Below are positions 3,115 through 52,238 of a stretch of DNA of 64,000 nucleotides, piece after piece (the stretch's first letter is position 1; each line of letters opens with the position of its first letter). The notes under the pieces were generated by a model that was not told where the DNA came from, made no database searches, and saw only the letters and a list, made by a program, of their open reading frames with translations. The position numbers were made by a program, and so were the translations under genes. The stretch comes from an uncultured Parcubacteria group bacterium (GTDB lineage: Bacteria > Patescibacteriota > Patescibacteriia > UBA9934 > CAMTUG01): the NCBI GenBank assembly GCA_947084965.1, contig CAMTUG010000001.1:276206-340205 (forward strand), read 5' to 3'.

Positions 3115-3119
3115 GGGGA

Positions 3120-3151
3120 CTTGTCAGTGCCAGTTGCTTTTGATACGTTCC
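3120..3151 (+). promoter_or_regulatory. Putative sigma70 promoter of the GC-rich cassette gene (TTGTCA-17-TACGTT)
   Basis: Hexamers read directly upstream of an AAGGAG SD and the ATG at 3172. Confidence 0.35.
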
Positions 3152-3171
3152 TGCCGTCCCAAAGGAGTCCC

Positions 3172-3741
3172 ATGCCCCCTCGTTCTTCCGCCCCCGCCGG
3201 TCTCTCCTGCTCCTTCTGCACCAAGGCCGCCAACACCCCTGAGGTGAAGAAGGTCATCGCCGGCGTAAACGTCTACATCTGTGACGTCTGCGTCAAGGGG
3301 ATGGTCGCGCTCGTCGTTGTCCAACGTCCGGCTGACGCATCCTACCTCCTGCGTCGGCCCGAGCTCGATCTGCGCACCTTCACCATGACCGTCACGGGGT
3401 CGACGACGCTCGGTGACGTGCTCGGCTGGTACCTGCGTGTCTACCGTACGTTCCCTCACCTCCCCAAGGAGACCGGGACGGTCATCACGAGTGCTGCCTG
3501 CCGATTCTGCAGCCGGGTCGACCAGGTCGTGATCAGCCGCCTCGCGGCCAACATCTGCCTCGACTGCCTGCGGGACGTCGCCAAGATCCTGCTCAAGGAC
3601 GACCCTGCGCCGTCCTACCTGGTGCGTGATGCGGTGCTCGACTTGTGCCCGTTCGCCACCCTCCGCCTCGACGTGGATGAGCCGCACACCATCGGCGATG
3701 TTCTCAACGCCTACACGACCGCATCTCCGCCGCTGAACTGA
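3172..3741 (+). CDS. Small protein with two ClpX-type C4 zinc-finger motifs and no AAA+ domain. Extreme GC3 codon usage unlike the backbone
   Basis: AAGGAG SD 5 nt upstream. Motifs LSCSFCTKAANTPEVKKVIAGVNVYICDVCV and CRFCSRVDQVVISRLAANICLDCL resemble the ClpX N-terminal zinc finger. Third codon positions are almost all G/C, whereas the antisense ORF (3124-3756) lacks that signature. Confidence 0.7.
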   Translation: MPPRSSAPAGLSCSFCTKAANTPEVKKVIAGVNVYICDVCVKGMVALVVVQRPADASYLLRRPELDLRTFTMTVTGSTTLGDVLGWYLRVYRTFPHLPKETGTVITSAACRFCSRVDQVVISRLAANICLDCLRDVAKILLKDDPAPSYLVRDAVLDLCPFATLRLDVDEPHTIGDVLNAYTTASPPLN

Positions 3742-3829
3742 TCTTCGGCAGCTCACCTCGGCCGCCGATCTATACGGAACGCCGCTCGGAATACTCCCGG
3801 GCGGCGTCTGAACTTAATTGAATTTCAAA

Positions 3830-3857
3830 CCGCGCTCGTCCAGGACGGAGAGCGCGG
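3830..3857. terminator. Bidirectional hairpin terminator between convergent genes
   Basis: ccgcgctc-gtccaggacgga-gagcgcgg, followed by atttgatt. Confidence 0.6.
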
Positions 3858-3863
3858 ATTTGA

Positions 3864-5048
3864 TTACGGTCGTTCCTTGGGGCGGAGGAAGTAGAGGACG
3901 ATCGCGAGAATGACGAGCAGTCCGCCGGAAGCGAGCCAGACGTCAGCGATGTTCGCCGGCGTGTCCTCGCGGCCGGACATGTAGAAGGCGAGTGAGAAGA
4001 GGACGATCGCGGCGCCGATCTCTTCCATCAGCGACTGCAACGATCCGAACGTCGAGCGGTATTCGCTCGTAACGTGGTGGTTGGTGTAGCTGTCGAGGAG
4101 CGGTCGGAACGCCCCGCGGCCGACTTCGTGCACCACGCCCATCACGAGGACCAGTCCAAGCCCAGGAACTTGCCCGATGAGCGCCAGGCCAACCCCAGCG
4201 ACGACGAGGGCGATCATCACGGCTTTGGCTTCGGCCCCTGAAGCGATCTTCGCTTTGCGAATGATCATCCCGGCGATGAAGAGCGCCAGATAGAGCGGGC
4301 TCCAGATCAGTCCGAGCTGGCTGGTGGCCACAAACTGCTCGAAGTACTTCGGCCAGTAGTGGTTGAACGCCACGACCAGACCGCTCACCATCCCTACCGC
4401 CACGGCCCAGCGCAGCGCCGAGCTGTTGCGCAGGGCATTGACGCTCCGCTTGAGCGCCTCTTTCTCGCTGACCTTTTCGTGGGCCAGTACTTCGCCGTCG
4501 CCGTTCATGTAGCGGGTGACGACAAAGAGTCCGACGAGAGCAAAGAACGCACTAGCGATCCACGGCCACCGAAGGCCGAAGGTCGATCCGATCCACGAGC
4601 CAAAGATCGCCGCCGGTGCGGCCAGCAATCCTTTGACGATCGCGGCGTTGGCGAACGTCTGCCCCTTTTCGTTTTCGCGATTGTGCAACTTCAAGGCGTC
4701 GACGATCCAGGCCTGCTGAATCCCCGAGAGGAAGGTGAAGGCCAAACCGTTGACCACTTCGGCCGCCAGCGCCCACCAGACGTTCTCTGCCAGGAAGTAG
4801 ATCGCGTTGCCCAGAGCGAAGATCAGGAAGCCGATGCGCAAGGACCAGGCGCGGGAGCGGGCGTCGGCCCACATCCCGGTCGGGACTTCGAAGAGGATGA
4901 TCGCCACCCAGAACCAACCGTTGACCATCGAAACCTGGCTCAAGGTGAGCCCGATCGAGGTGAGGAACGGAACGTAGGTCGCCGTGGTGACCATGAACAT
5001 CAGGCCCAGGGCGGCGGAGAAGAGGATGTAGGCGCGGGAAGGGGACAT
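3864..5048 (-). CDS. MFS-type transporter (12 predicted TM helices), GC-elevated
   Basis: Hydrophobic helices throughout, GGAGG SD upstream, ~60% GC with a high-GC3 5' half. Confidence 0.65.
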   Translation of the reverse strand: MSPSRAYILFSAALGLMFMVTTATYVPFLTSIGLTLSQVSMVNGWFWVAIILFEVPTGMWADARSRAWSLRIGFLIFALGNAIYFLAENVWWALAAEVVNGLAFTFLSGIQQAWIVDALKLHNRENEKGQTFANAAIVKGLLAAPAAIFGSWIGSTFGLRWPWIASAFFALVGLFVVTRYMNGDGEVLAHEKVSEKEALKRSVNALRNSSALRWAVAVGMVSGLVVAFNHYWPKYFEQFVATSQLGLIWSPLYLALFIAGMIIRKAKIASGAEAKAVMIALVVAGVGLALIGQVPGLGLVLVMGVVHEVGRGAFRPLLDSYTNHHVTSEYRSTFGSLQSLMEEIGAAIVLFSLAFYMSGREDTPANIADVWLASGGLLVILAIVLYFLRPKERP

Positions 5049-5311
5049 AGAGCCTCCGGAGAGTCAAAAAAAGAACACGACCCGGGATGATTCCCAGGTC
5101 GTGCGAGGACTCATTATGCAAAAAATCATGCAATCAGTGCTCGACCACCTGAGAAATACAACGCTTTCGGCATATCGCAGCCGACGAACGCGCGTCCGGT
5201 AATGTGGAGAGACTGATAATTCATACTGTTTTTAGTAGACAGGACTTTGTGAGTGATGTCAAGTGACGGAGTCTATATAAAAGCCAGCGGTTACGGTAAA
5301 CTGTCCCCAGT

Positions 5312-6424
5312 ATGAAAATCGCCTTTATTGGGCAGAAAGCAATGGGAGTTGGAGGGCGAGGGGGTGGCATTGAACGGCATGTGACCGAAATTGCTACGCG
5401 GTTGGTTCGGCGCGGGCACGAAGTAACGGTCTATGCACGCAAGCTGTACATGCCAGACAAGGTGCGTGAATTTCGTGGGGTGAGGATTGTGTATGTGCCG
5501 ACGATCTACACCAAAAATTTTGAAGCGATCATTCACACATTTTTTTCAACGCTCCACGCCCTGTTTAAAAATTTTGATGTCTATCACTATCACGGCGTCG
5601 GTCCGGCAACGCTTGCTTGGATGCCGCGGCTTTTTCGTCCTCACGCTCGGGTGGTCGTCACCTTTCATTCGCAAGATCGTTTTCACAAAAAGTGGGGATG
5701 GTTCGCACGGAACTATCTGCACTTCGGCGAATGGGCCAGTGTCTGGTTTCCGCACGCTTGCATCGCGGTGTCTCATGTGATTCAGGTTTATGCGCGTAAT
5801 GTGTATAAACGCCAGGTGATTTACATTCCAAACGGTGCAGATGTGCAGAGCGTTTCGTCTGATCGTGAACTGGAAACGTTCGGCCTGACCAAAGGCGAAT
5901 ACATCGTCAACGTTGGGCGCATCGTGCCGCAGAAAGGACTGCAGTATCTCCTTGCGGCGTATCAAAAACTCGAGACGCAGAAAAAGCTTGTGATTGTCGG
6001 GACTCCAAGTTTTTCTGAACGCTACGCCGATGAATTAAAACGGATGGCGGCAGGAAATCCGAACATCCTTTTTGTTGGACATCAAGTTGGGGAAGCATTG
6101 CGACAGCTTTACGGCCATGCGTATCTTTTCGTGCAGCCGTCTGAATCAGAAGGCCTTTCGATCGTCGTGTTAGAAGCGATGAGCTACGGCCTTGCTCCTT
6201 TGGTTAGCGACATCCCGGAAAATCTTGAAGCGATTAAGAATACGGGATTCACCTTTAGTAATCGTGACGCGGATGATTTAGCGATGCGGTTGCGACAGCT
6301 CCTGCAGCATCCTGAATTGGTTGTTGAGATGGGCGTCAAGGCGCGCGAGCTGGTGCGCACCGATTTTAATTGGGATGTTATTGCGGATCGCACGGAAGGG
6401 ATTTATGTTTCGATTCGGCATTAG
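5312..6424 (+). CDS. Glycosyltransferase family 4 (GT4/GT-B)
   Basis: N-terminus MKIAFIGQKAMGVGGRGGGIERHVTEIATRLVRRGHEV, plus an E-x7-E-like C-terminal region. Confidence 0.75.
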   Translation: MKIAFIGQKAMGVGGRGGGIERHVTEIATRLVRRGHEVTVYARKLYMPDKVREFRGVRIVYVPTIYTKNFEAIIHTFFSTLHALFKNFDVYHYHGVGPATLAWMPRLFRPHARVVVTFHSQDRFHKKWGWFARNYLHFGEWASVWFPHACIAVSHVIQVYARNVYKRQVIYIPNGADVQSVSSDRELETFGLTKGEYIVNVGRIVPQKGLQYLLAAYQKLETQKKLVIVGTPSFSERYADELKRMAAGNPNILFVGHQVGEALRQLYGHAYLFVQPSESEGLSIVVLEAMSYGLAPLVSDIPENLEAIKNTGFTFSNRDADDLAMRLRQLLQHPELVVEMGVKARELVRTDFNWDVIADRTEGIYVSIRH

Positions 6425-6545
6425 TATGAAAATACGAAATCCGGAAATCGAAATTCGAAACAAATCAGAATCGGAAAGGGAAAATTTCAAACCTTTCACT
6501 TTTTTCTCTTTTCCGATCGTTTCGAATTTCGATATTTGAATTTCG
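6425..6545. repeat. Intergenic inverted-repeat element with TTCGAA(A/T)-type units forming a long hairpin. Related to 908-1018
   Basis: aatcgaaattcgaaac ... gtttcgaatttcgat; tcggaaag ... cttttccga. It shares aatcggaaag and acgaaa units with the ftsW-murG element. Confidence 0.7.
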
Positions 6546-6550
6546 AATAT

Positions 6551-8998
6551 ATGAACAAGGAAGTCCTGTTAAAAAATGAGCTCCCCTCAACGCCTCCTCC
6601 GGGGTACGGCGTGTTAGTGCTGAATCAACTGAAGTCGCCCCTGGTTTATATTTTGCTCGTCGCGGCTGGGTTGTCGGTTGCCGTTCATGAATATTTTGAT
6701 GCCGGCGTTATCTTATTCGCGGTTTTATTGAATACATCGTTAGGGTTTTTACAAGAGTTTAAGGCTTCGCGAGCGCTCGATGCCTTAAAAGCACTGGTGC
6801 AACCGGAAGCTCGGGTCAAGCGAGATGGTAAGATCGTCACGATCGCGGCGCGTGATGTGGTTGTGGGCGACACGCTCGTGCTTGAGACGGGGGATCGTGT
6901 CGCTGCAGATGCAAGAGTTTCCGTCGCGGTTGAATTACAGGTCAACGAATCAACGCTGACCGGAGAATCGATGCCGGTCACCAAAGTTTTTGATGGAAAG
7001 GAACAGGTCTTCATGGGCACAACGATTGTGGCCGGGCGCGGAGAAGCCGTGGTGACAGAGATCGGGATCAATACGCGCCTTGGACAGACGGCGGAGCTGG
7101 TTGCATCGATGGAAGAAGAAGATACACCGCTGCAAACGGAACTTGGGCGACTGTCACAGACGTTGTCGATCGCGGTTTTGGTGATCGGGCTCGTAGTGAT
7201 CGTGATCGGGGTGTCCAAAGGGGGCGAGGTGATCGAGATGGTTACGCTCGCCGCCGCCCTCGCCGTGGCTGCGATTCCCGAAGGACTGCTCGTCGGGCTG
7301 ACCGTTATTTTAGCGATCGGCATGCAGCGGATGCTCAAAGCCAAGGCATTGACGCGGCGTCTCGTCGCGGCTGAAACGCTGGGGAGCGTCTCTGTTATTT
7401 GTACAGATAAAACAGGAACGATCACTAAAGGCGAAATGGAAGTGACCGTAATCGAATCCGAGGATCGAAAAAAAGCGCTCAGGGTTGCCGCGCTCTGCAA
7501 CAACGCCGAACTTGAAGGGATGCAGGTGCGTGGAACGATGACGGAAATGGCCTTACTTACCGCAGCCATGCATGAAGGGTTGGTCAAGGAAGCGCTCGAG
7601 GCAGATTATCCGCGTCTGGATGAACGACCGTTTTCTTCGTCCGCTAAGTTTATGGCGACGCTGCATCGTCACGGGAGTCATAACATGATTCTGTTAAAAG
7701 GGGCTCCAGAGGTCGTTGCCAGTTTTTGTTCGAAGGGAGGAGAGATTGTGTCGCATCATGCCCCGAAGATGACAGAAAAAGGATTGCGGGTGATCGCTTT
7801 GGCGATGAAAGAGGTAGGACAGACAACAACCACGCTGCGGGATGAAGATCTGCACGGGTTGACCTGCGTAGGATTGATCGGGCTCAGCGACCCGATTCGT
7901 CCTGAAGCAGCGCAAACGATCAAAGAAGCCAAGGTCGCCGGGGTGCGCACGATTATCATTACCGGAGATCATCCAAGGACGGCCCAAACGATCGCTGAAC
8001 AGGCGGGGTTTGGTCCAGAGAATAAGCGCGTGATCACAGGTGAGGAACTGGACGCCCTTTCTGAATCTGATTTTGCGCGGCGTCTTTCTTCGATCGATAT
8101 TTATGCCCGTGTGTTGCCGGCGCACAAAGTTCGTATCGTTCAGGCATGGCGTCACGCCGGGGCGTCTGTGGCCATGATCGGAGATGGGGTCAACGATGCG
8201 CCTGCCCTCAAAGCCGCCGACATCGGTGTCGCTTTGGGCAGTGGGACAGAGGTGGCCAAGCAGACAGGGGATATGGTTTTGCTCGATAATAATCTGTCGA
8301 CGTTGGTTCATGCGATCGCTCAGGGCCGAGTCATTTTTGACAACATCCGTAAGGTCGTTGCGTATCTGCTGACAGATAGCTTTACGGAACTGCTCCTGAT
8401 CATCGCCACGTTTCTCATCGGATTGCCGATCCCGATCTTTCCGGCGCAGATTTTGTGGATCAACTTGGTGACCGATGGATTTCCACACATGGCCCTGACG
8501 ATTGAAAAACCTGAACGCGGAATCATGAACGAACCGCCGCGGCCACGCACCGAGCGCGTCATAAACAAAGAGATGCGGGTCATTATTTCGCTCGTCGGTC
8601 TCACCACGGTCGTTCTGCTTCTCGGTCTGTATATCTACCTTCTTTCCACAGAGATGCCGATCGAAAAGATCCGCACGGTCATCTTCACGGCCCTCGGATT
8701 AAACTCGCTTCTGTACGTTCTTTCGATCCGGACCTTCCGTTCATCGATGTTCACCTCAAATCCGTTACAAAATCCTTGGCTCGTCGCATCGATGTTCGTT
8801 GGATTCCTCTTTTTGCTCGCCCCACTCGTGATCCCATCGTTCCGTACTCTGTTCGGTTTTGTGCCGCTGACCTTCCTAGAATTCGGGGCATTAGTTATGC
8901 TAGCCTTAGGACGCCAGCTCTTAACAGAAGCGATCAAGTTTTACTACCATTATGGAAAACGAAAAGAATCCCGAACCGGCATGGCTCTTTCAGCGTAA
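6551..8998 (+). CDS. P-type cation-transporting ATPase, type II Ca2+/Mg2+-like
   Basis: DKTGTIT phosphorylation motif, TGDHPRTA, GDGVNDAPALKAADIGVA, multiple TM segments. Start taken at ATG 6551; an in-frame TTG at 6536 is possible. Confidence 0.85.
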   Translation: MNKEVLLKNELPSTPPPGYGVLVLNQLKSPLVYILLVAAGLSVAVHEYFDAGVILFAVLLNTSLGFLQEFKASRALDALKALVQPEARVKRDGKIVTIAARDVVVGDTLVLETGDRVAADARVSVAVELQVNESTLTGESMPVTKVFDGKEQVFMGTTIVAGRGEAVVTEIGINTRLGQTAELVASMEEEDTPLQTELGRLSQTLSIAVLVIGLVVIVIGVSKGGEVIEMVTLAAALAVAAIPEGLLVGLTVILAIGMQRMLKAKALTRRLVAAETLGSVSVICTDKTGTITKGEMEVTVIESEDRKKALRVAALCNNAELEGMQVRGTMTEMALLTAAMHEGLVKEALEADYPRLDERPFSSSAKFMATLHRHGSHNMILLKGAPEVVASFCSKGGEIVSHHAPKMTEKGLRVIALAMKEVGQTTTTLRDEDLHGLTCVGLIGLSDPIRPEAAQTIKEAKVAGVRTIIITGDHPRTAQTIAEQAGFGPENKRVITGEELDALSESDFARRLSSIDIYARVLPAHKVRIVQAWRHAGASVAMIGDGVNDAPALKAADIGVALGSGTEVAKQTGDMVLLDNNLSTLVHAIAQGRVIFDNIRKVVAYLLTDSFTELLLIIATFLIGLPIPIFPAQILWINLVTDGFPHMALTIEKPERGIMNEPPRPRTERVINKEMRVIISLVGLTTVVLLLGLYIYLLSTEMPIEKIRTVIFTALGLNSLLYVLSIRTFRSSMFTSNPLQNPWLVASMFVGFLFLLAPLVIPSFRTLFGFVPLTFLEFGALVMLALGRQLLTEAIKFYYHYGKRKESRTGMALSA

Positions 8999-9638
8999 CG
9001 AACTTGATCTCCTGGAGCAGGATTTTCGTGCCGCCTGGGCGGATGCTCTTGGAGCGGAACGACCGTTGACCGAAGTCGAAGAAGAAGTCATGGCCGAAGT
9101 CGATCAAATAGATGGCGCAGCGCATGCTGATCTTGAAGTCCTGTTTGCTGAGGCGGGGGTGGAAGACGATCGCTGTCCGGTGCACGGTGCCGATTGCCAT
9201 GGGGGGGAGGGGGACGCTTCAATCGCCGAGATGTTGGATGCGACGATCACCCACGATCCTCTCTCGTCGCGAGCGTTTCAGTTGGAGCGCGCGGTAGCCG
9301 ATTGGTGTCGGACGGCGGCGGTCCCGCAACCGATGTATCGTGATCTCTTTCGTTTGCGAATCAATGCTCCGCTCTTTGCCGCGAAGATCGTCTTTGCTGC
9401 ACAGGAAGAAGCGGTAGGGGATGCTCTCTCTATTCGGGTGGCGATAAAAGAATTAGAGGTAGGGGTCGCTTATCTGCGCCGCGCGACCGATGCGTTGAAC
9501 GTCTTGATGCATGGTGAGGCGCTCTCGCAAGGGATCGGGAGTGAGTGGCTACGCGAAGCCGAGGCGTTGTTGGTGCAGGCGCAAGAAAGACAACAACGTC
9601 TGCAATGGTTCATTCGTTTTCGTGGCAATGCGTTATGA
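8952..9638 (+). CDS. Hypothetical acidic protein. Start uncertain, with an alternative ATG at 9090
   Basis: ORF with backbone codon usage. Its stop overlaps the next start (ATGA). The 5' 47 nt would overlap the ATPase. Confidence 0.4.
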   Translation: MENEKNPEPAWLFQRNELDLLEQDFRAAWADALGAERPLTEVEEEVMAEVDQIDGAAHADLEVLFAEAGVEDDRCPVHGADCHGGEGDASIAEMLDATITHDPLSSRAFQLERAVADWCRTAAVPQPMYRDLFRLRINAPLFAAKIVFAAQEEAVGDALSIRVAIKELEVGVAYLRRATDALNVLMHGEALSQGIGSEWLREAEALLVQAQERQQRLQWFIRFRGNAL

Positions 9639-10297
9639 CCAGTATTGCGGCGATCGTGCCGGCCTACAATGAAGCACAGACGATTGCGGACGTCGTAGCG
9701 ACGCTCCGTCAGAGTGTATTGGTGCAGGAGGTGATCGTCGTTTCTGACGGTTCAACCGATGATACGGAAGCGTTGGCGGCCTCTGCGGGGGCGCGGGTCA
9801 TTCGTCTGTCAAAAAAAGGAGGGAAGGGAGCGGCGATGCTCCATGGACTCACACAGACCGATGCCCAGATTATTCTGTTTACTGACGCGGATTTGATTGG
9901 ATTTACCACTGAGCATGTTGAACGCCTCTTACTTCCGATCCTAAACGGAGCGCGGGTTATGAACGTCGGTTTGCGTGACCGAGGGCGCTTGATTACGGCT
10001 CTGGGAAGGTTCTTGCCTCTCATTGGCGGCGAGCGGGCGATTCGGCGATCGGTCATTGAACAGATTCCTCCTCACTTTTTGCAAGGATTTATGATAGAAT
10101 CTGCTTTGAACTACTTCTGTCGATCGCGGCGCTTGGCGTACGGTTCCGTAGCCCTGCCTGGGCTTACCATTCGACGCAAGTATCAAAAAGTGGGTTGGAA
10201 GGAAGGATTTAAACAATATGCTCGGATGTCGGGCCAGATCGTGACCGCTATGGTTCGTGTCCGTATCGCCCATTTGACTGGAACATTTCACGTATGA
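9636..10297 (+). CDS. Glycosyltransferase family 2, polyprenyl-phosphate sugar transferase-like
   Basis: AIVPAYNEAQTIADVV...VIVVSDGSTDDTEALA (GT2 DxD region). Translationally coupled to murD by ATGA. Confidence 0.75.
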
Positions 10298-11733
10298 AGA
10301 TCGAAGATTTTAAAGATGCAGTCGTAACCGTGATGGGACTCGGTCGCTTTAAGCAAGGGAGCGGTGTTGGCGCCACCAAATGGTTGATGCGCCATGGGGC
10401 GCAGGTGATTATCACGGATCTGAAGTCTGAGGCTGAGCTGAAAGAATCCGTTGATGAAGTGACGAATTGGTACGAGCAGTATCGCAAAGATCATCCTGAT
10501 CGCGAGATTTACCATCCGTTGTTTGTGCTTGGGGAACATCGCGAGGAGGATTTCACCGAATGCGCCGCTGTGCTGCAAAATCCAGACGTCAAACGAGAAG
10601 ATAAATTCGTCGCTTTAGCTCGGGCACACAACATCCCGATCTTTTCCGACGTCAGTCTGTTTTTTCACTTCTGTCCGTTTCCGATCACTGGCGTAACCGG
10701 TACGCGCGGAAAGACCACGACCACAGCATTGATTGGCGAAATGTACAAAGCGATGGATCCGCGAGCGATTACGGCTGGCAACATCAAAGTGTCTCCGCTG
10801 GAATATTTGGACGAGATTTTGAAGGATGAAAAGCCGCGCCCGATCGTCCTTGAATTATCATCGTCATTGATTGAAAGTTTGGGGGATTCTGGTCGTGGAC
10901 CAGATATTGGAGTTTTGACCAACATGTTTCCGGACCACCTCAATCGTTACGGATCGTATGAAGAATACCGACTGGCCAAAGAGATGATGTTTAAGATGCA
11001 AAAGCCCGACGCCTTCGCCATTATCAACAAAGACAACCTAGATGCTTCGGCGATCGCCCCGCGTGTCCCGAGCAAGCTGTATTGGTTCACCCGCGGCGAG
11101 GATTTAGCGGGGGTCGGAGGGACGTTTGTCAAAGATGGAATGCTCTTTTTCCGTCAGGGAGGAACAGACGAAGCCATCATCTCCGTCGCCGACATTGCCC
11201 TGGAGGGCGAACATAACCTTGAGAATGTGTTAGCGGCCGTTTGTGCGGCCAAAGTGCACGGAACGCCAAATGCGGCGATCGTGACCGCACTGAAGACCTT
11301 TAATGGGATGCCAGAGCGTCAGGAGGTGGTACGCGAAGTGAACGGCGTGACGTATGTTGATGACACGACGGCGACGTCACCAGAGGGGGCGATGGCTGCC
11401 CTCAAGCGCTTCGGACAAAAGGGGAAGGTGGTGTTGCTTGCGGGGGGTGCGTCCAAGAATTTGCCGCTCGATGATCTGGGAAAGATGATCCGTACGACCT
11501 GCAAGTACGTCGTGTTGTTTGAAGGGACCGCGACCGATGATTTTATGAAAGCGATTGGAGATTCTGTCCCGACCGTGCGGGTGAATTCGATGGTCGAAGC
11601 GATGCAGGCCGCTTCGAGTGTGGCGCAGTCGGGTGACATCGTTTTGCTTTCACCGGGCACGGCCAGTTTCGGGATCTTCAAAAATGAATTTGACCGCGGG
11701 GCCCAGTTTAAAGACGCGGTTGCCAAGCTCTAA
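10294..11733 (+). CDS. murD: UDP-N-acetylmuramoylalanine--D-glutamate ligase
   Basis: MurD-like N-terminal Rossmann domain (VMGLGRFKQGSG), Mur ligase P-loop GVTGTRGKTTTTALIGEMY. Confidence 0.8.
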   Translation: MKIEDFKDAVVTVMGLGRFKQGSGVGATKWLMRHGAQVIITDLKSEAELKESVDEVTNWYEQYRKDHPDREIYHPLFVLGEHREEDFTECAAVLQNPDVKREDKFVALARAHNIPIFSDVSLFFHFCPFPITGVTGTRGKTTTTALIGEMYKAMDPRAITAGNIKVSPLEYLDEILKDEKPRPIVLELSSSLIESLGDSGRGPDIGVLTNMFPDHLNRYGSYEEYRLAKEMMFKMQKPDAFAIINKDNLDASAIAPRVPSKLYWFTRGEDLAGVGGTFVKDGMLFFRQGGTDEAIISVADIALEGEHNLENVLAAVCAAKVHGTPNAAIVTALKTFNGMPERQEVVREVNGVTYVDDTTATSPEGAMAALKRFGQKGKVVLLAGGASKNLPLDDLGKMIRTTCKYVVLFEGTATDDFMKAIGDSVPTVRVNSMVEAMQAASSVAQSGDIVLLSPGTASFGIFKNEFDRGAQFKDAVAKL

Positions 11734-15481: not shown

Positions 15482-15555
15482 GCGGGATTAGTACAGTGGT
15501 AGTATGCAAGCTTCCCAAGCTTGAGAGGCGAGTTCGATTCTCGTATCCCGCTCCA
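15482..15555 (+). tRNA. tRNA-Gly (anticodon CCC)
   Basis: GCGGGAT acceptor, D-arm GTACAGTGGTAGTAT, anticodon loop TTCCCAA, T-arm AGAGGCGAGTTCGATTCTCG, ATCCCGC-T-CCA. Confidence 0.85.
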
Positions 15556-15715: not shown

Positions 15716-15790
15716 GCCGATGTAGCTCAGTGGTAGAGCAATGCTTTCGTAAAGCAGAGGTCGCGAGTTCGACTCTCGCCATCGGCTCCA
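15716..15790 (+). tRNA. tRNA-Thr (anticodon CGT)
   Basis: GCCGATG acceptor, GCTCAGTGGTAGAGC, anticodon loop TTCGTAA, T-arm GCGAGTTCGACTCTCGC, CATCGGC-T-CCA. Confidence 0.85.
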
Positions 15791-15820
15791 AAAAATCTTC
15801 ACTTTGGTGGAGATTTTTTG
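15791..15820 (+). terminator. Rho-independent terminator after the tRNA-Gly/Thr pair
   Basis: aaaatcttcac-tttg-gtggagatttt, followed by a T-run. Confidence 0.6.
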
Positions 15821-15840
15821 TTGTGCTATACTGTTGGCGT

Positions 15841-16521
15841 GTGATTCACTTTAAGAACGTGACCAAAACATATCCACCGAACGTGGTGGGGCTGAAGGAC
15901 TGCTCCTTGCACATCAAACCAGGGGAGTTTGTTTGCATCGTCGGGAGGAGCGGAACGGGGAAGTCTACTCTCGCCAAATGTCTGTTTGCAGAAGAGCGCG
16001 CGGAGCGTGGAACGGTGGAGATTGGCGGCTGGGATATTACCAACATTAAAGCGAGTGAAGTTCCGTTGCTGCGTCGTCAGATCGGTGTCGTCTTCCAGGA
16101 CTTTAAATTATTGCCGAAAAAAACGGCGGAGGAGAACGTTTCCTTTGCCCTGGAAGTTGCCGGCGAACGTCCCAAGCGTATCCGCGAAGTGGTGCCGAAC
16201 GTGATGCGGATCGTCGGGCTGGGGGACAAAATGCACCGCTATCCACATCAGCTTTCCGGAGGGGAACAGCAGCGCATTTCAATCGCTCGTGCCTTGGTGC
16301 ATCGTCCGAAAGTGCTCGTCGCCGATGAACCAACGGGAAATTTAGACACGGTCAACACGCACGAAATCATCGAACTGCTCAAAAAGATTAACGACTTTGG
16401 GACAACGATCGTGCTCGTGACCCACAATCGCGAGGTAGTCAACAAGTTAAAAAAACGGGTCGTCACGCTCGAGGGGGGAAAGATCATCTCCGACGTTGAA
16501 GAAGGAAAATACAAACTGTGA
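15841..16521 (+). CDS. ftsE: Cell-division ABC transporter ATP-binding protein FtsE
   Basis: Walker A GRSGTGKST, ABC signature LSGGEQQRISIARAL, Walker B VLVADEPT. GTG start at 15841. The ORF-track extension back to 15730 would run into the tRNA-Thr. Confidence 0.8.
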   Translation: MIHFKNVTKTYPPNVVGLKDCSLHIKPGEFVCIVGRSGTGKSTLAKCLFAEERAERGTVEIGGWDITNIKASEVPLLRRQIGVVFQDFKLLPKKTAEENVSFALEVAGERPKRIREVVPNVMRIVGLGDKMHRYPHQLSGGEQQRISIARALVHRPKVLVADEPTGNLDTVNTHEIIELLKKINDFGTTIVLVTHNREVVNKLKKRVVTLEGGKIISDVEEGKYKL

Positions 16522-17429: not shown

Positions 17430-17556
17430 TGAAACGAGGTAAATTCCTCGATTTGCTGCGTTATGGGGCCCCGACGACTCCTCAACGTACCGGCCATGTA
17501 CGTCTTGATCGTCGTCCTCCCCATGCCTTGCAACTCGAGTTTTTACCTCGTTTCAT
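17429..17556. repeat. 128-nt imperfect palindromic long-hairpin element (REP/MITE-like), family copy E1
   Basis: Perfect 15-bp terminal inverted repeats atgaaacgaggtaaa / tttacctcgtttcat. Nested inner stems and an apical hairpin acgtac-cggccat-gtacgt. Related to the element at 27258-27379. Confidence 0.7.
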
Positions 17557-17593
17557 TGACTTAGCATCATCATTGTAGTACTATCCGATCCTT

Positions 17594-19384: not shown

Positions 19385-19529
19385 CCGATCTCTTGATCGA
19401 TTTAAGATTTTGTCGTACGATCCCCACGCATTCCGGGAGCCGACTGCATCGGCCCCGTCGTTCGCTCGGGAATGTCGAAGCGGTGAGTTTCTCCATTGCG
19501 CTCACTCACTCCGGGATCGTCTAATGGCA

Positions 19530-19603
19530 GGACAGCGGCCTTTGAAGCCGTGAATCGTGGTTCGAATCCACGTCCCGGAACCAAGAAAAATGACCAGCGC
19601 GTG
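19530..19603 (+). tRNA. tRNA-Gln (anticodon TTG)
   Basis: TCCGGGA acceptor, anticodon loop CTTTGAA, T-arm CGTGGTTCGAATCCACG, TCCCGGA-A-CCA. Confidence 0.8.
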
Positions 19604-19637
19604 CTGGTCGTTTTTCTTTGTCGACGTGGATTCGAAT
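19604..19637. terminator. Bidirectional terminator hairpin between tRNA-Gln and mscL
   Basis: aaaaat-gaccagc-gcgt-gctggtc-gttttt. Confidence 0.65.
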
Positions 19638-19662
19638 GGGAAGAGGTGCCTCGCCCTGGGCC

Positions 19663-20061: not shown

Positions 20062-20155
20062 ATATTCTATGGTGTATAAGTAAACAACCCACATCCTAAT
20101 TATACAGGAGCTTCCTAAGTTTCAACACGTCTGTTTGTGTTATACTTCGATATAT

Positions 20156-21124: not shown

Positions 21125-21136
21125 ACGAAACTCAAA

Positions 21137-30333: not shown

Positions 30334-30348
30334 CGTGCGTCAGGTCGG

Positions 30349-39944: not shown

Positions 39945-39968
39945 GCAACTCCGTGATAAAATAGTTTC

Positions 39969-41294
39969 ATGATTCCCAAATTCATCACCACCAAAAACGC
40001 TGAGCTTCCGGATAATCCGGGGGTGTATTTTTACTATGATACGAAAGGGAAGTTGCTGTACATCGGCAAGGCGACGAGTTTGAAAAAACGCGTGGGATCA
40101 TATTTCACCAAAGCGCATGATAATCGCATCGCCGATTTGGTAACGAAGATTGCGCGGATTGATTACATCGAAACACCGACCGTTATCGAAGCGCTAGTGC
40201 TTGAAGCGAATCAGATCAAAGCGCATACGCCGCCGTACAATGTTTTGCAGCGCGATGACAAAAGTTTTCTGTATGTGGCGATCACCAATGAAGACTTTCC
40301 CAAGCCGACGTTGCTTCGCGGGTTGGAGTTGCAGCGCATGGGAGTTGATCCGTTTGCGCCGACGCTCTCGCTCAAAGCCAAGCGCAAGTTCAAGGCGATT
40401 TATGGTCCGTACACCAGCGGGCATTCGTTGAAGATCGCTCTCGATCTGATTCGTAAGAGCATTCCTTGGACAACCTGTGAACCGCCAGAAGTGACGGGAG
40501 TAGCCAAAGCCTGTTTTTATCGCCACCTTGGCCAGTGTCCAGGAGTTTGTACAGGAGAGATCACCAAGCGTGATTATGCGAAGATTATTCGCAGTCTGAT
40601 GCTGTTTTTTGAGGGCAAAAAGGAACAGATCATACGCCAGATGCGTCGGGAGATGAAGTCTGCGGCGAATGATTTAGATTTTGAACGCGCCGCGGAATTG
40701 AAGCGTAAGACTTTCGCGTTAACGCATATTCAAGACGTGGCGTTGGTGAGTCACGAAGAGCCGTTGCCGTACAATCGCGAGTCGAAGCCGTACATTGATA
40801 TTCTCGGGCGCATCGAAGCGTACGACATCAGTAATATTTCTGGCACCTCCGCAGTTGGATCGATGGTTGTGTTTGATGACGGGAAGCCAGCCAAACAGCA
40901 CTATCGCAAGTTTAAAATCAAAACCGTGGTTGGCGCGAACGACGTGGCGTGTTTAGAGGAGGTGATGCGTCGTCGTTTGGCGCGTGCGGAGCTGCAGCCA
41001 AAAGCTTGGCCGTTGCCAGAGCTGATGGTGATTGATGGCGGCAAGCCGCAAGTCAATCGGGTGCAAGAAGTGCTCGATGAGTTGCAGGTTGCACTGCCGA
41101 TTGTTGGGCTGGCCAAAGGATTTGATCGCAAGCAGGACGTGTTGATTTTTGATCCTGCCAATCGCGAGTTAAAGCGTGTCGTCGAAACGAACAAAGAGAT
41201 CCTCCAGCGCGCCCGCGACGAAGCGCATCGCTTTGCTATCAGCTACCATCGTAAACTACGAGGAAAACGCTCATTATTGGGCCCTCATACTTGA
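39969..41294 (+). CDS. uvrC: Excinuclease ABC subunit C (short form, 441 aa, lacks C-terminal HhH region)
   Basis: GIY-YIG N-terminus (GVYFYYDTKGKLLYIGKATSLKKR), Cys-rich region, UVR domain, RNase H-like endonuclease domain. Confidence 0.85.
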   Translation: MIPKFITTKNAELPDNPGVYFYYDTKGKLLYIGKATSLKKRVGSYFTKAHDNRIADLVTKIARIDYIETPTVIEALVLEANQIKAHTPPYNVLQRDDKSFLYVAITNEDFPKPTLLRGLELQRMGVDPFAPTLSLKAKRKFKAIYGPYTSGHSLKIALDLIRKSIPWTTCEPPEVTGVAKACFYRHLGQCPGVCTGEITKRDYAKIIRSLMLFFEGKKEQIIRQMRREMKSAANDLDFERAAELKRKTFALTHIQDVALVSHEEPLPYNRESKPYIDILGRIEAYDISNISGTSAVGSMVVFDDGKPAKQHYRKFKIKTVVGANDVACLEEVMRRRLARAELQPKAWPLPELMVIDGGKPQVNRVQEVLDELQVALPIVGLAKGFDRKQDVLIFDPANRELKRVVETNKEILQRARDEAHRFAISYHRKLRGKRSLLGPHT

Positions 41295-41319
41295 CAGGGA
41301 TCGATTTTTGCTTTATCTT
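41291..41319 (+). promoter_or_regulatory. Putative sigma70 promoter of cassette gene (TTGACA-17-TATCTT), overlapping the uvrC stop
   Basis: Read directly. Confidence 0.4.
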
Positions 41320-41343
41320 TACCCTCCACCCCAAGGAGTCTCA

Positions 41344-41688
41344 ATGTCCGAGTCCGTCACCGCCTTCCGTCCCGATCCGGCCAAGATCTACGAGATCACG
41401 CTCCTCGAGGGCGACGTGGATCAGATCTGGAACCTCGCCCACGAAGGGGGTCGTTCGATCCTGCTTCTCGTGCGAGACCAGGCCGATCCCGCCGCGCCCG
41501 AGCAGGGGCTCTCCCTCATCCTCTACTCCGTCGCCTGGGAGGGCGGCGACAAGGAAAACCACCCGAACGAGGTCGTCGTCCGCGGCCGCATCCACGGCCG
41601 TACCGCGGACGAGCCGAACCCGGTGATCGGGTTTTGCTGGGACGACAAGTCCCGGACCGGTCTCCTCAACGTGGTCCTCCCGGTCTAG
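41344..41688 (+). CDS. Hypothetical 114-aa protein, extreme GC3 (cassette gene)
   Basis: AAGGAG SD 5 nt upstream of ATG 41344. G/C-ending codons dominate. Followed by terminator 41744-41802. Confidence 0.6.
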   Translation: MSESVTAFRPDPAKIYEITLLEGDVDQIWNLAHEGGRSILLLVRDQADPAAPEQGLSLILYSVAWEGGDKENHPNEVVVRGRIHGRTADEPNPVIGFCWDDKSRTGLLNVVLPV

Positions 41689-41743
41689 ACGTCCGGGCCT
41701 CGCCCTGCACGTCCGACCGGCTGCGATTCTCGCACCCGCCCCG

Positions 41744-41802
41744 GCATGAGCCCCTCGCTCACACTGCCGCGGTGGGTGCTCATGCTTTTATCGTCTTTTT
41801 TT
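41744..41802 (+). terminator. Rho-independent terminator of cassette gene
   Basis: gcatgagc...gctcatgc stem followed by ttttatcgtcttttttt. Confidence 0.55.
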
Positions 41803-41804
41803 GA

Positions 41805-42983
41805 ATGCCGTGTTACATTGTCCCTACTATGAAACATTATCTTTCTGGTCCGTTATTTTTGGGACTTATCGTGACTATGGGCTTTATTCCAATGTCGGTT
41901 TGGGCGGCGAGTGCCTGGCCGGCGTCCACGCAAGGGACGAGTATTGGCGGAGGGTTTGCGGGGATGACTCCGGCATTTGAACCGAGTGGGATTGAATGGT
42001 TGAGTGGGCGTTCTCAATTTGTCGTGGTCGGGGACGAAGGTCAGGTGGCGACGATGAATGCGGACGGAAGTGCTGCCAAGGTCTGGGATCTCGGTCGCAG
42101 CTATGACTTAGAAGGGGTCGCCGTAGCAGATGGGAATTCGAGCCGCGTCTATCTACTCGATGAAAACACCAGCTCGGCATTGGAGTTTGATTTGACGACC
42201 GGAACGCTGACCGGAAAAGTTTGGAGCTTTGCTGACAAACTTTCTGAAATCGACGGTTCTGGAGCGGAAGCTCTCGCTTATGCCAACGGCGCTTTCTATG
42301 TTGGCTGGCAGTACGACGGCGACATTTACGTCTATCCCGCAGATTTGGCGGTTAGTGGCTCGCAAGTTTTTGAACGCGAAATTCACATGACCTCTGGATA
42401 CGTTGATCTTGCTGGACTCACCTACAACAGCGACACCCAAAGACTCTACGCGCTATATGACGGGCTTAACTTGATCGAAGAGCGCTCGCTTAGTGGGGAA
42501 TTGCTCGCTTCCTACACAGCCCCTGGTGTGAATCAGGAGGGTATTGCTTTTGTGAACAACTGCGCTGGATCAAATGCAACGGTGGCGATCGCGGAAGATT
42601 CGGGGAATGTGGTGAGTTACGCGGGGTATCCGATCTCCTGTATTTCTCCGGCCCCAGCTCCTGCCCCTGCACCAGAACCTACGCCAGAGCCAACCCCGGA
42701 GCCAGCTCCTGAACCAGAGCTCATTACGATCACCTCCGTTTCCGGCGTGCGCGATGGGGACATTCTCGTTGCTTACTCCGACGGATCAACGGTGCGTTAC
42801 TCGATCTGGAGCAAAACAACTCGCACCAAGACCTCTGTTCAGCCGCTCACAGATCCGACCCATTACTTAGTGATCCTTGGGAAACAGGTCGCGGTCGTTG
42901 ATGCGATGGATGGTACGATTCTTGGTACGCGCAGCAAACCGCGATCCTCGTCAGTGCTGTACAGCTGGGCCAATTCGTTCTAA
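41805..42983 (+). CDS. Secreted hypothetical protein with beta-propeller-like N-domain, (PAPAPEPTPEP) linker and C-terminal domain
   Basis: Signal peptide, Pro/Ala/Glu linker. Alternative start at 41829. Confidence 0.45.
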   Translation: MPCYIVPTMKHYLSGPLFLGLIVTMGFIPMSVWAASAWPASTQGTSIGGGFAGMTPAFEPSGIEWLSGRSQFVVVGDEGQVATMNADGSAAKVWDLGRSYDLEGVAVADGNSSRVYLLDENTSSALEFDLTTGTLTGKVWSFADKLSEIDGSGAEALAYANGAFYVGWQYDGDIYVYPADLAVSGSQVFEREIHMTSGYVDLAGLTYNSDTQRLYALYDGLNLIEERSLSGELLASYTAPGVNQEGIAFVNNCAGSNATVAIAEDSGNVVSYAGYPISCISPAPAPAPAPEPTPEPTPEPAPEPELITITSVSGVRDGDILVAYSDGSTVRYSIWSKTTRTKTSVQPLTDPTHYLVILGKQVAVVDAMDGTILGTRSKPRSSSVLYSWANSF

Positions 42984-50650: not shown

Positions 50651-51114
50651 TCAAACGCTCTTGGCGATTGTTGATTCTTCTCGCTGCTATCGTGATCATC
50701 GCGATCATGGTGATGAGGATGTCGTCGCCGTCGATCGGTGTGCCCGATGACGGATCTGTTGCATTCGAAGGTGGACCGATCGTTCCGGTGGAGATCTCGG
50801 ATTCACAAGACGAACAGGTTCGTGGACTCTCGGGGCGCGATGGGCTCGCTCCAGGATCAGGAATGCTCTTTGTCTACGATGATCAAAAGGTCCGGACATA
50901 TTGGATGAAAGAGATGCGTTTCTCGATCGATATTATTTGGATTGCGGACGGACAGGTGATCGGGTTTGTCGAGCGCGCTGTGCCGCCGATCGGTCCGGGC
51001 GACCCGCTTGATCTGTACCGGTCCCCAGAACCCGCTGATCGTGTTCTTGAAGTTGAGGCGGGTTTTATCGAAGAACACGGGGTCTTCATCGGGCAGACGG
51101 TGGTAACCAATTGA
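50647..51114 (+). CDS. DUF192-domain protein
   Basis: GLSGRDGLAPGSGMLFVY...SIDIIWIADGQVIG pattern. Confidence 0.55.
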   Translation: MIKRSWRLLILLAAIVIIAIMVMRMSSPSIGVPDDGSVAFEGGPIVPVEISDSQDEQVRGLSGRDGLAPGSGMLFVYDDQKVRTYWMKEMRFSIDIIWIADGQVIGFVERAVPPIGPGDPLDLYRSPEPADRVLEVEAGFIEEHGVFIGQTVVTN

Positions 51115-51215
51115 CGTTTTTCGTCTTCTTTGCTACTATTTTCGCGTCATTCACAGCGCTGGCCAATGGGTTTCAAGAGCTGAAAAGCCCCCAGGTGCCG
51201 CGGTAATTTAAGAGT

Positions 51216-51524
51216 ATGTTCGCAGTTATTAAGACGGGTGGTAAGCAGGAGATCGTCCGCGAAGGACAGCTTTTGACCACCGAAAAGCTCGAGATCGAAG
51301 TCGGTAAGCCCGTAGAATTCGAGGTATTGCTCACCGCCGAAGATGACGGATCGTCGGTCGAAGTCGGCAAGCCGGTGCTCAAAACGGTGGTCAAAGGGAC
51401 GGTCGTTGAACACGGTAAGGGCGATAAAGTGTCGGTTATCAAATACAAAGCCAAGTCGCGTTACCGCCGCAACGGCAGCCACCGACAGCCATTCACCAAA
51501 GTCAAAATCGAAAAGATCGGATAA
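51216..51524 (+). CDS. rplU: 50S ribosomal protein L21
   Basis: MFAVIKTGGKQEIVREGQLL...; 102 aa. Confidence 0.9.
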   Translation: MFAVIKTGGKQEIVREGQLLTTEKLEIEVGKPVEFEVLLTAEDDGSSVEVGKPVLKTVVKGTVVEHGKGDKVSVIKYKAKSRYRRNGSHRQPFTKVKIEKIG

Positions 51525-51528
51525 GGAG

Positions 51529-51556
51529 AGCGGGGTCATGCGCCCCGCTTTTTCGT
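51529..51556 (+). terminator. Rho-independent terminator after rplU
   Basis: agcgggg-tcatgcg-ccccgct followed by ttttcgtttc. Confidence 0.6.
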
Positions 51557-51632
51557 TTCAAAAACAGAAGCGCGCACCCGGAGAGAGCGGCTAGCCGGGT
51601 GGGCTTCTGCCGCGCTTCAGGTGCGCGTGACC

Positions 51633-52100
51633 TCAGCCGTAGAAGCCGAGGCGTTGGTAGAGGTGGGGTGGGAAGGAGACGCTGGGGGTCAGCGCCTGGT
51701 CCTCTGTGGTCGAGGTGGCGACGACCTGGTTGGTGCCGAGGTCCGTGTTCACGAAGAACTGGAACTCGACCGCTCCGGTCCCGAAGAAGGTGGAGATCAC
51801 GGCCACGCCCTGCTCGTTCGAGCGGACGTACCCGTAGTAGTCGAACCCGCTGTAGCCGATCAGCGGGATCTCGAGCTTGAACCCGACCAGCGCGCAGAAC
51901 GGTCGGTCGCCCCTGAGGACGATGTTCTGCATGCTGCGCTCGAGCCCTTCCGCCTTCGCACCGCGGTAGGTGTAGCGGACCATCTGGTTGGAGTACTTGA
52001 TGAAGTCGGCCATGAAGCCGAACTTCTTCAGGAATTCCTTGCTGAGGAAGACCGCCAGTGTGGTGGAGAGGACGAGGCAGGTGGTGAGGAGAACGGTCAT
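51633..52100 (-). CDS. Secreted/membrane-anchored hypothetical protein (155 aa), extreme GC3 (cassette gene)
   Basis: GGAAGG SD upstream. Near-consensus promoter TTGACT-17-TATATT, whose + strand reverse complement lies at 52146-52174. Terminator hairpin gaagcgcg...cgcgcttc plus T-run after the stop. The antisense ORFs 51621-52190(+) and 51502-52155(-) were rejected. Confidence 0.65.
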   Translation of the reverse strand: MTVLLTTCLVLSTTLAVFLSKEFLKKFGFMADFIKYSNQMVRYTYRGAKAEGLERSMQNIVLRGDRPFCALVGFKLEIPLIGYSGFDYYGYVRSNEQGVAVISTFFGTGAVEFQFFVNTDLGTNQVVATSTTEDQALTPSVSFPPHLYQRLGFYG

Positions 52101-52238
52101 CGGAACCTTCCTGTAAGCCGCGGCGGGGATGCCATGCGGGGGATGAATATAGCATATTTTGGGCAAAAAGTCAACGGTTCAGAAAGGTGATTTCTACAAA
52201 AAGTAACAAAAAACAGCCCTTTCTTAACGAAAGAACTG

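Follow-up and report, generated by a model that had tools for sequence, protein, structure and literature searches.

Six GC3-rich genes at five loci

The stretch of DNA analysed here, hereafter the window, comprises 64,000 nt of contig CAMTUG010000001.1 (positions 276,206 to 340,205) and comes from the chromosome of a small groundwater bacterium, an Uhrbacteria-like Patescibacterium. At five dispersed loci it contains six genes whose base composition departs sharply from that of their surroundings. We call the small-gene cassettes CAS1 to CAS5 and the transporter gene adjoining CAS1 MFS. Their coordinates and expression signals are collected in Table 1; loci in relatives carry labels such as L005, L081, L096, L101 and L108.

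In 200-nt windows all five loci reach 63-66% GC against a mean of 52.9% for the window, so the five compositional jumps that an earlier reading of this sequence (the preliminary description) had pointed out are real. The six genes themselves have a GC content of 0.62-0.67 in surroundings of 0.53. Resolved by frame, one codon phase reaches 0.80-0.97 GC with the remaining two near 0.4-0.7, and this phase-specific GC fixes the coding frames of all six. The codon periodicity is as had been described, the six genes having GC at third codon positions (GC3) of 0.80-0.93 and at second positions (GC2) of 0.41-0.53. We used 53 backbone genes of the window as a GC3 reference (0.583±0.045, maximum 0.67), against which the six genes lie far off, at z = 4.7-7.7. 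The distribution is bimodal, with no gene between the backbone and the six, and a scan of the window for a codon phase of at least 0.80 GC returned the five loci and only a few blips of 180-270 nt.

Nearly the whole excess is carried by C at the third position (C3; 0.54 against 0.28 in the backbone), G at this position (G3) being unchanged at 0.32 against 0.30. At two-fold codons the six genes prefer NNC over NNT at 0.85-1.00, against about 0.5, and rplU ranks just under the cassettes with 0.82. G-ending codons are preferred over A-ending ones at 0.8-0.9 in the cassettes and at 0.48 in rplU. The conserved genes that flank the cassettes show no rise in GC3 (uppS 0.63, GT4 0.54, rplU 0.65, recR 0.60, uvrC 0.59). 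Among relatives, the GC3 of accessory genes has a standard deviation of 0.10, against 0.04 for conserved genes, and deviates in both directions.

Table 1. Coordinates, strands and sequence properties of the cassettes, of other features in the window and of CAS5 homologues in relatives
Feature	Position or neighbourhood	Strand	Properties
CAS1-MFS locus	3151-5050		GC 0.63
CAS1 promoter-like site	3121-3149	+	TTGTCA-17-TACGTT, 8/12, weak -10
CAS1 SD	3162-3167	+	AAGGAG, 4 nt before ATG
CAS1	3172-3741	+	GC3 0.84
CAS1 terminator-like hairpin	3775-3810	+	3742-3870 folds at -60.8 kcal/mol, z = -5.6
Hairpin common to convergent CAS1 and MFS	3825-3863	both	bidirectional terminator-like
MFS	3864-5048	-	GC3 0.84
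MFS leader	5049-5135	-	SD GGAGG 5053-5057; perfect intrinsic-terminator-like hairpin 5076-5103, then U7; z = -5.3
CAS2 locus	25951-26350		GC 0.63
CAS2 terminator-like hairpin	25974-26018	-	then U-run; -33.9 kcal/mol, z = -4.3
CAS2	26036-26329	-	GC3 0.80
CAS2 SD	26335-26339	-	AGGAG
CAS2 promoter-like site	26350-26378	-	TTGACG-17-TATTCC
Segment without counterpart in L081, L082	29246-30806		about 1.56 kb
Propeller gene	29457-30290		GC3 0.58
CAS3 locus	30301-30800		GC 0.66
Hairpin between convergent propeller gene and CAS3	30296-30342		z = -5.4
CAS3	30349-30726	-	GC3 0.90
CAS3 SD	30734-30737	-	GGAG
CAS3 promoter-like site	30752-30780	-	TTGACG-17-TATGAT
Palindrome TTGACGttcgCGTCAA	30765-30780		-35 boxes of divergent CAS3 (-, TATGAT) and nadM (+, TAGGAT)
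nadM true start	30807	+
CAS4 locus	41326-41825		GC 0.65
CAS4 promoter-like site	41291-41319	+	TTGACA-17-TATCTT; -35 box overlaps uvrC stop codon
CAS4 SD	41333-41338	+	AAGGAG
CAS4	41344-41688	+	GC3 0.89
CAS4 terminator-like hairpin	41732-41803	+	then U-run; kept in L005
CAS5 locus	51501-52000		GC 0.63
CAS5 terminator-like hairpin	51571-51627	-	then U5; -41.5 kcal/mol, z = -3.8
CAS5	51633-52100	-	GC3 0.93; start codon ATG at 52100
CAS5 SD	52106-52112	-	AGGAAGG
CAS5 promoter-like site	52146-52174	-	TTGACT-17-TATATT
-10 box near start, uvrC	39957-39962		TAAAAT
-10 box near start, dnaB	54654-54659		TAAGAT
-10 box near start, rplU	51204-51209		TAATTT
-10 box near start, mscL			TATAAT
DEAD-box helicase promoter-like site	17556-17584		TTGACT-17-TACTAT
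tRNA	2311-2382	-
tRNA	15482-15552	+
tRNA	15716-15787
tRNA	19510-19580	+
CAS5 in the window	rplU-recR		GC3 0.93 vs backbone 0.58
CAS5 homologue, L098	after dnaJ		GC3 0.77 vs 0.39-0.48
CAS5 homologue, L101	uvrC-mraZ		GC3 0.75 vs 0.45-0.63
CAS5 homologue, L102	DUF2779-methyltransferase		GC3 0.46 vs 0.38
CAS5 homologue, L104	after phosphoribosyltransferase		GC3 0.70 vs 0.39-0.60
CAS5 homologue, L108	secE-MFS/gyrB		GC3 0.73 vs 0.22-0.34

Expression signals of the cassettes and of the backbone

All promoter hexamers quoted in the preliminary description are present, each pair at a spacing of 17 nt. Near-consensus sigma70 promoters had been claimed for every cassette. The promoter-like sites of CAS3, CAS4 and CAS5 agree with the consensus at 10 of 12 positions, a score that no site in the 130 nt preceding any of 60 backbone genes attains. 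Those of CAS1 and CAS2 agree at only 8 of 12 positions, a level reached by most backbone upstream regions. A Shine-Dalgarno (SD) motif of the GGAG type, also claimed for each cassette, stands upstream of five of the six GC3-rich genes and the sixth (CAS5) has AGGAAGG, whereas GGAG or GAGG is found upstream of only 2 of the 60 backbone genes. Each of the six has a predicted leader of 20-45 nt bearing AGGAG, GGAGG or AGGAAGG (GGAG in CAS3). The hairpins taken as the cassettes' own terminators are stable, folding at z = -3.3 to -5.6 relative to shuffled sequence. The picture of self-contained-looking units, each with a promoter-like site, an SD, a putative terminator and an odd composition, is supported by the sequence. 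No riboswitch was found in the cassette leaders by an Rfam scan.

In the first genes of backbone operons a -10 box precedes the ATG by 6-13 nt, with examples in Table 1. Together with the lack of SD motifs in the backbone, this spacing is the signature of leaderless transcripts, and it suggests that the core genome is largely leaderless and SD-independent.

High GC3 is also paired with an SD in relatives (odds ratio 15, p = 1.4e-7, 159 genes pooled), and the odds ratio is 8.4 without the window genes. Since the pooled loci had been chosen through cassette homologues, we repeated the test on 16 independent Patescibacteria loci fetched through ClpC. Using crude gene calls, an SD was found in 56% of GC3-high open reading frames (ORFs), compared with 16% among all others (odds ratio 6.6, p = 3e-4). 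The pairing recurs in the MFS orthologues and CAS5 homologues, in several L005 genes, in a P-loop kinase gene of L081, in secreted-protein genes of L003 and in hyp224 of L096. In the literature searched, we found no description for Patescibacteria of a GC3-rich, SD-led gene class set against a leaderless backbone.

Other genes of this kind were seen in the relatives' loci. L007 (5471-5863) and L008 (5238-5684), both Parcubacteria-type loci of the ClpC-derived set with a median GC3 of 0.36, encode homologous small proteins at GC3 0.81 and 0.74; the family is unrelated to CAS1-5, and L007 has a TTGACA...TAATCT promoter-like site. At L104 4432-5795, pyrF (with the SD AGGAG) and a phosphoribosyltransferase gene have a GC3 of 0.77-0.87, against 0.39-0.60 for the other genes of the contig, so metabolic genes can join the atypical class. 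Two secreted hypothetical proteins, hyp224 beside rpmA in L096 (16581-17255, 224 aa, GC3 0.92) and hyp223 in L106 (249-920, 223 aa, GC3 0.89), come from hosts of about 53-57% GC; they are further members of the GC3-rich class and may be mutually related.

Synteny and relatives of the individual genes

The nearest homologue of the window's ClpC is in L005 (63% identity), followed by Candidatus Uhrbacteria genomes at about 51%. L005 is a 53% GC assembly whose Gammaproteobacteria label is wrong.

Two of the six genes have orthologues in place in relatives. MFS (394 aa, PF07690) lies between GT4 and uppS in L096, beside uppS in L106 and beside GT4 in L107, and its divergence in relatives (54-63% identity) is about the same as that of GT4 (62%). 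Its GC3 in these three loci is 0.68, 0.72 and 0.76, each above that of its own backbone, and in four syntenic genomes the orthologues combine the AAGGAG motif with a GC3 of 0.68-0.84, against about 0.5-0.6. MFS homologues (38-68% identity) are all metagenomic and the one that is named is from Patescibacteria; the sole match from a cultivated high-GC organism is a Microbacterium transporter, a marginal hit with 34% identity over 35% of the query. Judged by this synteny, MFS appears to be ancestral and native to the clade. The hairpin in its leader stands directly upstream of the GGAGG SD and might control the transporter by attenuating its transcription.

CAS4 encodes a protein of 114 aa (own record P0024) for which a database scan returned a single relative, P0112, the gene in L005. 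There, a 114-aa orthologue directly follows uvrC; it is 41% identical to CAS4 (76% for uvrC), and the alignment retains the -35 box over the uvrC stop, the -10 box and the SD, as well as the terminator hairpin and the ORF in its 3' half. The orthologue has a GC3 of 0.72 against a backbone of 0.57, and CAS4, too, appears to be ancestral. The preliminary description had held that homologues syntenic and compositionally similar in all relatives would mark the genes as ancestral and not acquired; this applies in part, syntenic homologues having been found for some of the set, namely for MFS in three relatives and for the CAS4 unit in L005.

The small genes in the gap between uvrC and mraZ differ between L005 and L101, and this gap is a hot spot. 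In L101 it is filled by 14 consecutive small genes on the same strand without a Pfam match (3650-10723), among them a CAS5 homologue and several genes with a GC3 of 0.75-0.86. This run may represent an integrated element, or else a more extensive accessory island lodged at the same hot spot.

CAS1 encodes 189 aa in two repeats, each consisting of a ClpX-type C4 zinc finger and a domain of about 55 aa. The Pfam family PF06689 matches residues 29-59 of a 206-aa ORF (E = 4.9e-9, 36.4 bits against a cutoff of 27), and a second finger is seen in the sequence (CRFC...CLDC); as it has no AAA+ module, the protein is not ClpX itself. A large-database search returned its own record, P0001, as the sole match. 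A single-sequence AlphaFold2 model, with a predicted local distance difference test score (pLDDT) of 44.8, was unusable. An independent Logan assembly reproduces the order uppS-CAS1-MFS-GT4 exactly. In relatives, the gap between MFS and uppS is 110 bp long in L096, holds a tRNA-like sequence in L106 and a Y1 transposase in L107, and in L106 a different secreted gene (hyp223) sits between GT4 and MFS. CAS1 appears to be variable and looks inserted, filling a gap that is closed or otherwise filled in relatives.

CAS2 encodes a 97-aa CxxC...CxxC zinc-ribbon protein, and an exhaustive HMMER search of 1.84 billion cluster representatives returned no homologue beyond its own record, P0025. In the adjacent ATP-grasp (RimK-like) gene the C-terminus is extended by eight codons (TVDGLNRN, 26356-26382) that L081 and L082 lack. 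These codons include the -35 box of CAS2, which would place the junction at the old stop codon, with the foreign segment beginning just upstream of the promoter. CAS2 is probably an insertion. It had been thought to split an operon of ATP-grasp and Mur-ligase genes, an idea to be dropped, because these genes are neighbours in none of 14 relatives. The entire 19-26 kb region of the window is without a counterpart beside the ATP-grasp gene in L081 or L082.

CAS3 encodes a 125-aa protein whose reading frame is backed by codon statistics alone: it fits a codon model built from the other cassettes at -3.67 per codon, equal to the leave-one-out values of known genes, and alternative ORFs at the locus fit antisense models better. 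Neither large protein search, the exhaustive HMMER search included, returned a homologue. In L081 and L082 a SIMPL-family gene abuts nadM, and the intervening segment of the window, with the propeller gene (of normal GC3), CAS3 and a divergent promoter region, has no counterpart. Because nadM abuts the upstream gene in L081 and L082, it has no promoter region of its own there. From this comparison, CAS3 and the propeller gene look inserted. Both CAS3 and CAS5 are absent from the genome's public gene calls, whichever start codon was tried. Single-model gene finders probably miscall GC3-rich loci such as these, where several frames are open.

CAS5 encodes 155 aa, modelled by AlphaFold2 from 88 sequences (pLDDT 96) as an N-terminal transmembrane helix joined to a beta-sandwich domain. 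Family motifs are F-L-x-K-E-x-x-K-K-F and a C-terminal PPHWxQRLGFYG, both present in CAS5, and F19, E23, K27, M58, F69, D88, P146, H147 and Q150 are near-invariant in the 88-sequence alignment. The exhaustive HMMER search found about 140 cluster representatives at 30-54% identity, and the named ones, all hypothetical proteins, are assigned to Candidatus Magasanikbacteria and 'Patescibacteria group'; the family is Patescibacteria-wide. At its locus, rplU converging on recR is the ancestral arrangement, seen in L005, L002 and L009 with a gap of 130-500 bp in which only the rplU terminator is kept; the expectation that rpmA should follow rplU is therefore mistaken for this lineage. CAS5 looks inserted into this ancestral gap.

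Homologues of CAS5 occupy six different loci in six genomes (Table 1). A near-consensus promoter accompanies five of the six copies (none in L101), and the copies in the window, L098, L102 and L104 have clear hairpin terminators; the flanks share only such generic promoter and terminator features. The gene is GC3-rich in five of the six genomes, still reaching 0.73 in one of 37% GC. By these comparisons the CAS5 family behaves like a mobile gene with a composition of its own.

Searches for a donor, a vector and a mobile element

A high-GC donor such as an actinobacterial host, suggested at the outset, is not supported by the relatives found. CAS1-3 have no homologues in collections of 5.8 and 1.84 billion proteins; the relatives of MFS, CAS4 and CAS5 lie on metagenomic contigs with Patescibacteria-type gene content, the named ones being Patescibacteria; and the genes flanking the cassettes match Uhrbacteria and other Patescibacteria. 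A word-indexed search with concatenated CAS2-5 returned nothing, which is partly a limit of its sensitivity, as HMMER later gave the CAS5 relatives described above.

A phage or plasmid origin was considered and rejected. In PHROGs the only matches were to the zinc finger, to MFS and, weakly, to the 41805-42983 protein, tblastn of CAS1-5 against INPHARED phages and PLSDB plasmids gave no match, and neither did a scan of IMG/VR with a single peptide pattern from the CAS5 alignment. A PADLOC scan for defence systems returned nothing.

The other suggestion, a new class of mobile modules with conserved junctions, likewise found no support. All-against-all blastn-short between the loci returned only chance 9-12-mers, and all-against-all blastp revealed no similarity among the cassette proteins. 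In a search for target-site duplications and terminal inverted repeats, the longest flank-to-flank matches, direct or inverted, were 6-8 nt (P = 0.14-0.8 against shuffles). An attC core pair (RYYYAAC ... GTTRRRY) was found neither downstream of the cassettes nor anywhere in the window, and Pfam scans of essentially all 66 ORFs revealed no integrase, transposase or phage gene in the 64 kb.

Two further analyses were set aside. Translational selection as the sole cause of the composition was rejected, as rplU lacks the preference for G-ending over A-ending codons and GC3 is lowest in the ribosomal genes of L108. An attempt to date CAS4 and MFS by synonymous divergence (dS) was uninformative, with backbone dS saturated or undefined and cassette dS deflated by the shared codon bias.

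Other features of the window

In the Pfam scans the window has ordinary housekeeping content, including ftsW, murG, uppS, Mur ligases, ftsEX, uvrABC, mraZ-rsmH, tgt and clpC, and further rplU, recR, dnaB, folD, glyA and murB. The Rfam scan found four tRNAs and nothing else, and none of them adjoins a cassette. The longest-ORF start of an ftsE-like ABC ATPase gene (15730-16521) overlaps one of these tRNAs, so its true start must be further downstream. The stretch 19600-21130 is atypical in the opposite direction to the cassettes (GC 0.42, GC3 0.42-0.48); its products are MscL, a DM13-domain protein and a C39-like peptidase.

Origin of the cassettes

The reading that we favour, and to which we give about an even chance, is that the cassettes are unrelated accessory genes of a Patescibacteria pool, inserted at hot spots by transfer. 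Each gene would be a moron-like unit comprising a sigma-70-type promoter, the SD leader, one ORF and an intrinsic terminator, lodged in a variable gap between housekeeping operons (uppS-GT4, downstream of ATP-grasp, SIMPL-nadM, uvrC-mraZ, rplU-recR). We infer that their arrivals were spread over time and involved illegitimate or flank-mediated recombination, with no dedicated element. Repeated acquisition, as first proposed, fits CAS1, CAS3, CAS5 and probably CAS2, which fill gaps and would have come later; it does not fit MFS and CAS4, which are syntenic in relatives and would be older than the split from the nearest sampled ones. C3-rich codons and SD initiation may mark a source unlike the leaderless host backbone, plausibly a lineage or element that is GC-richer, uses SDs and belongs to Patescibacteria or is associated with them, whose signature could be kept by repeated transfer, possibly with selection in addition. 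The variation of accessory GC3 in both directions and the low-GC stretch at 19.6-21.1 kb fit a general horizontal flux. Several points weigh against this account, however. Neither a donor lineage nor a vector was found in the phage, plasmid and protein collections searched, and no insertion scars were seen at the cassette flanks. Moreover, the MFS (54-63%) and CAS4 (41%) orthologues keep their raised GC3 and, since backbone synonymous sites are saturated, the signal of one ancient transfer that then ameliorated neutrally should have been erased. The remaining options for a lasting GC3 are repeated replacement from a GC-rich reservoir (unsampled, none having been found), gene-specific selection and biased gene conversion.

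Another way to view the six genes is as a native regulatory class, in which selection maintains C3-rich codons and SD leaders in resident genes, for conditional or high translation or for mRNA stability amid leaderless core genes, and transfer is incidental. We consider this possible but unlikely. It would account for the MFS orthologues that keep AAGGAG and a high GC3 in four syntenic genomes, for the CAS4 unit conserved at GC3 0.72 and 0.89 in two genomes, and for CAS5 homologues with a GC3 of 0.70-0.93 where the backbone has 0.30-0.58; the saturated backbone dS and the NNC preference of rplU point the same way. However, the cassettes also favour G-ending codons as rplU does not, the ribosomal and chaperone genes of L108 and L098 have the lowest or an ordinary GC3, three of the six are singletons without a counterpart in relatives, and accessory genes deviate in both GC directions. 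A more speculative proposal is a two-tier mode of expression, in which a leaderless, SD-less core of moderate GC3 would be accompanied by a leadered, SD-dependent, C3-biased monocistronic minority, mostly of small, secreted, membrane or zinc-finger proteins from phylum-specific families; we rate it as rather unlikely. That it extends over Uhrbacteria/Magasanikbacteria-type Patescibacteria, and possibly over the phylum more widely, is a similarly doubtful step, and we would hesitate as much to claim that codon composition is actively kept together with initiation mode, persisting in syntenic orthologues past synonymous saturation and in a 37% GC host, as a separate regime of translation or regulation beyond a footprint of transfer.

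GC-biased gene conversion at recombination hot spots could in principle lift GC3 in often-exchanged accessory loci, and the genes do lie at variable hot spots, with homologues that are GC3-raised whatever the host. The shifts reported for gene conversion in bacteria are, however, far smaller than the cassette effect of about +0.3, GC3 is not raised in the flanking conserved genes, which would provide the homology arms, and the strand-specific excess concerns C rather than G and C alike, making this explanation improbable. A recent transfer from a high-GC donor outside the Patescibacteria is very improbable and largely refuted: although the high GC3 (about 0.9), a C3 exceeding G3, GGAG-type SDs and TTGACA/TAnnnT promoters are reminiscent of actinobacterial genes, the marginal Microbacterium match to MFS is the only homologue outside Patescibacteria, at least one named relative each of CAS5 and MFS is a Patescibacteria protein, and MFS and CAS4 are syntenic in relatives. 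We regard it as equally hard to sustain that the cassettes form a discrete class of promoter-gene-terminator modules with their own transposition or integration, resembling integron cassettes or miniature inverted-repeat transposable elements. The self-contained architecture recurs, CAS5 homologues occur at different loci and the CAS2 junction lies immediately upstream of its own -35 box, but conserved ends, target-site duplications, terminal inverted repeats, attC-like cores and a recombinase in the 64 kb are all lacking, and the CAS5-homologue flanks are only generically alike. Finally, chimeric joins of GC-rich fragments from another organism might be suspected in a metagenome-derived genome whose public gene calls lack CAS3 and CAS5. 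The Logan assembly of the CAS1-MFS locus, the CAS4 unit in place in another genome, MFS synteny in three other assemblies and the confinement of the islands to single genes within intact operon contexts make such an artefact scarcely credible.

Significance and comparison with known systems

On its own, the window holds ordinary accessory genes and no new mobile element. GC3-rich, SD-led stand-alone genes nevertheless appear to be a recurrent class in Patescibacteria. If so, they would identify an accessory gene pool of this phylum, probably one for host interaction, and would explain systematic gene-calling errors of the kind seen for CAS3 and CAS5. The link between SD and codon composition, and the persistence of GC3 in old orthologues and in AT-rich hosts, are not predicted by transfer plus amelioration, and they make these bacteria, with their tiny genomes, a workable system in which to study how a gene-specific base composition is upheld.

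Integron cassettes resemble the units in being small ORFs, mostly of unknown function, with an adjacent hairpin and a composition unlike that of the host. They are, however, promoterless, ended by attC and arrayed beside intI, whereas the units described here are dispersed, have their own promoter-like sites and lack attC-like cores and an integrase.

Atypical, that is horizontally acquired, genes as modelled by GeneMarkS-2 make up on average 8-9% of genes and usually have a lower GC than the genome (PMC6028130). The six genes are likewise a deviant minority (6 of 66, about 9%), and atypical genes are often missed or miscalled by single-model finders, as were CAS3 and CAS5. The six differ in deviating upward, by about 10 points in GC and about 30 in GC3, and also diverge from the backbone in their mode of translation initiation. 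The same study defines a 'group C' of genomes with mixed leaderless and SD-led genes, for example Actinobacteria and Deinococcus, and its text names neither Parcubacteria nor Saccharibacteria (PMC6028130). The window is similar in that a Pribnow box lies about 6-13 nt ahead of the start codon in the first genes of backbone operons and that a minority of genes has SD leaders, but here this minority is a distinct class in codon composition and has accessory status.

The closest concept is the phage 'moron' of Hendrix and colleagues, the definition of which is restated in PMC2920897. Like morons, CAS1, CAS3 with the propeller gene, and CAS5 interrupt pairs of genes that adjoin each other in relatives, while MFS and CAS4, being old and syntenic, do not fit. 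The units would have their own promoter and/or terminator, to judge by the promoter-like matches and stable hairpins, and their GC deviates from the surroundings; different units share one hot spot, and one unit, the CAS5 family, occurs in unrelated backgrounds. Unlike the morons of PMC2920897, which are lower in GC, these units are GC-richer than their surroundings, and their host is a housekeeping chromosome with no phage genes in 64 kb. By analogy, we suggest that they are moron-like atypical genes of a Patescibacteria chromosome, and that the coupling of SD-led initiation to C3-rich codons against a leaderless backbone is the part most worth pursuing.

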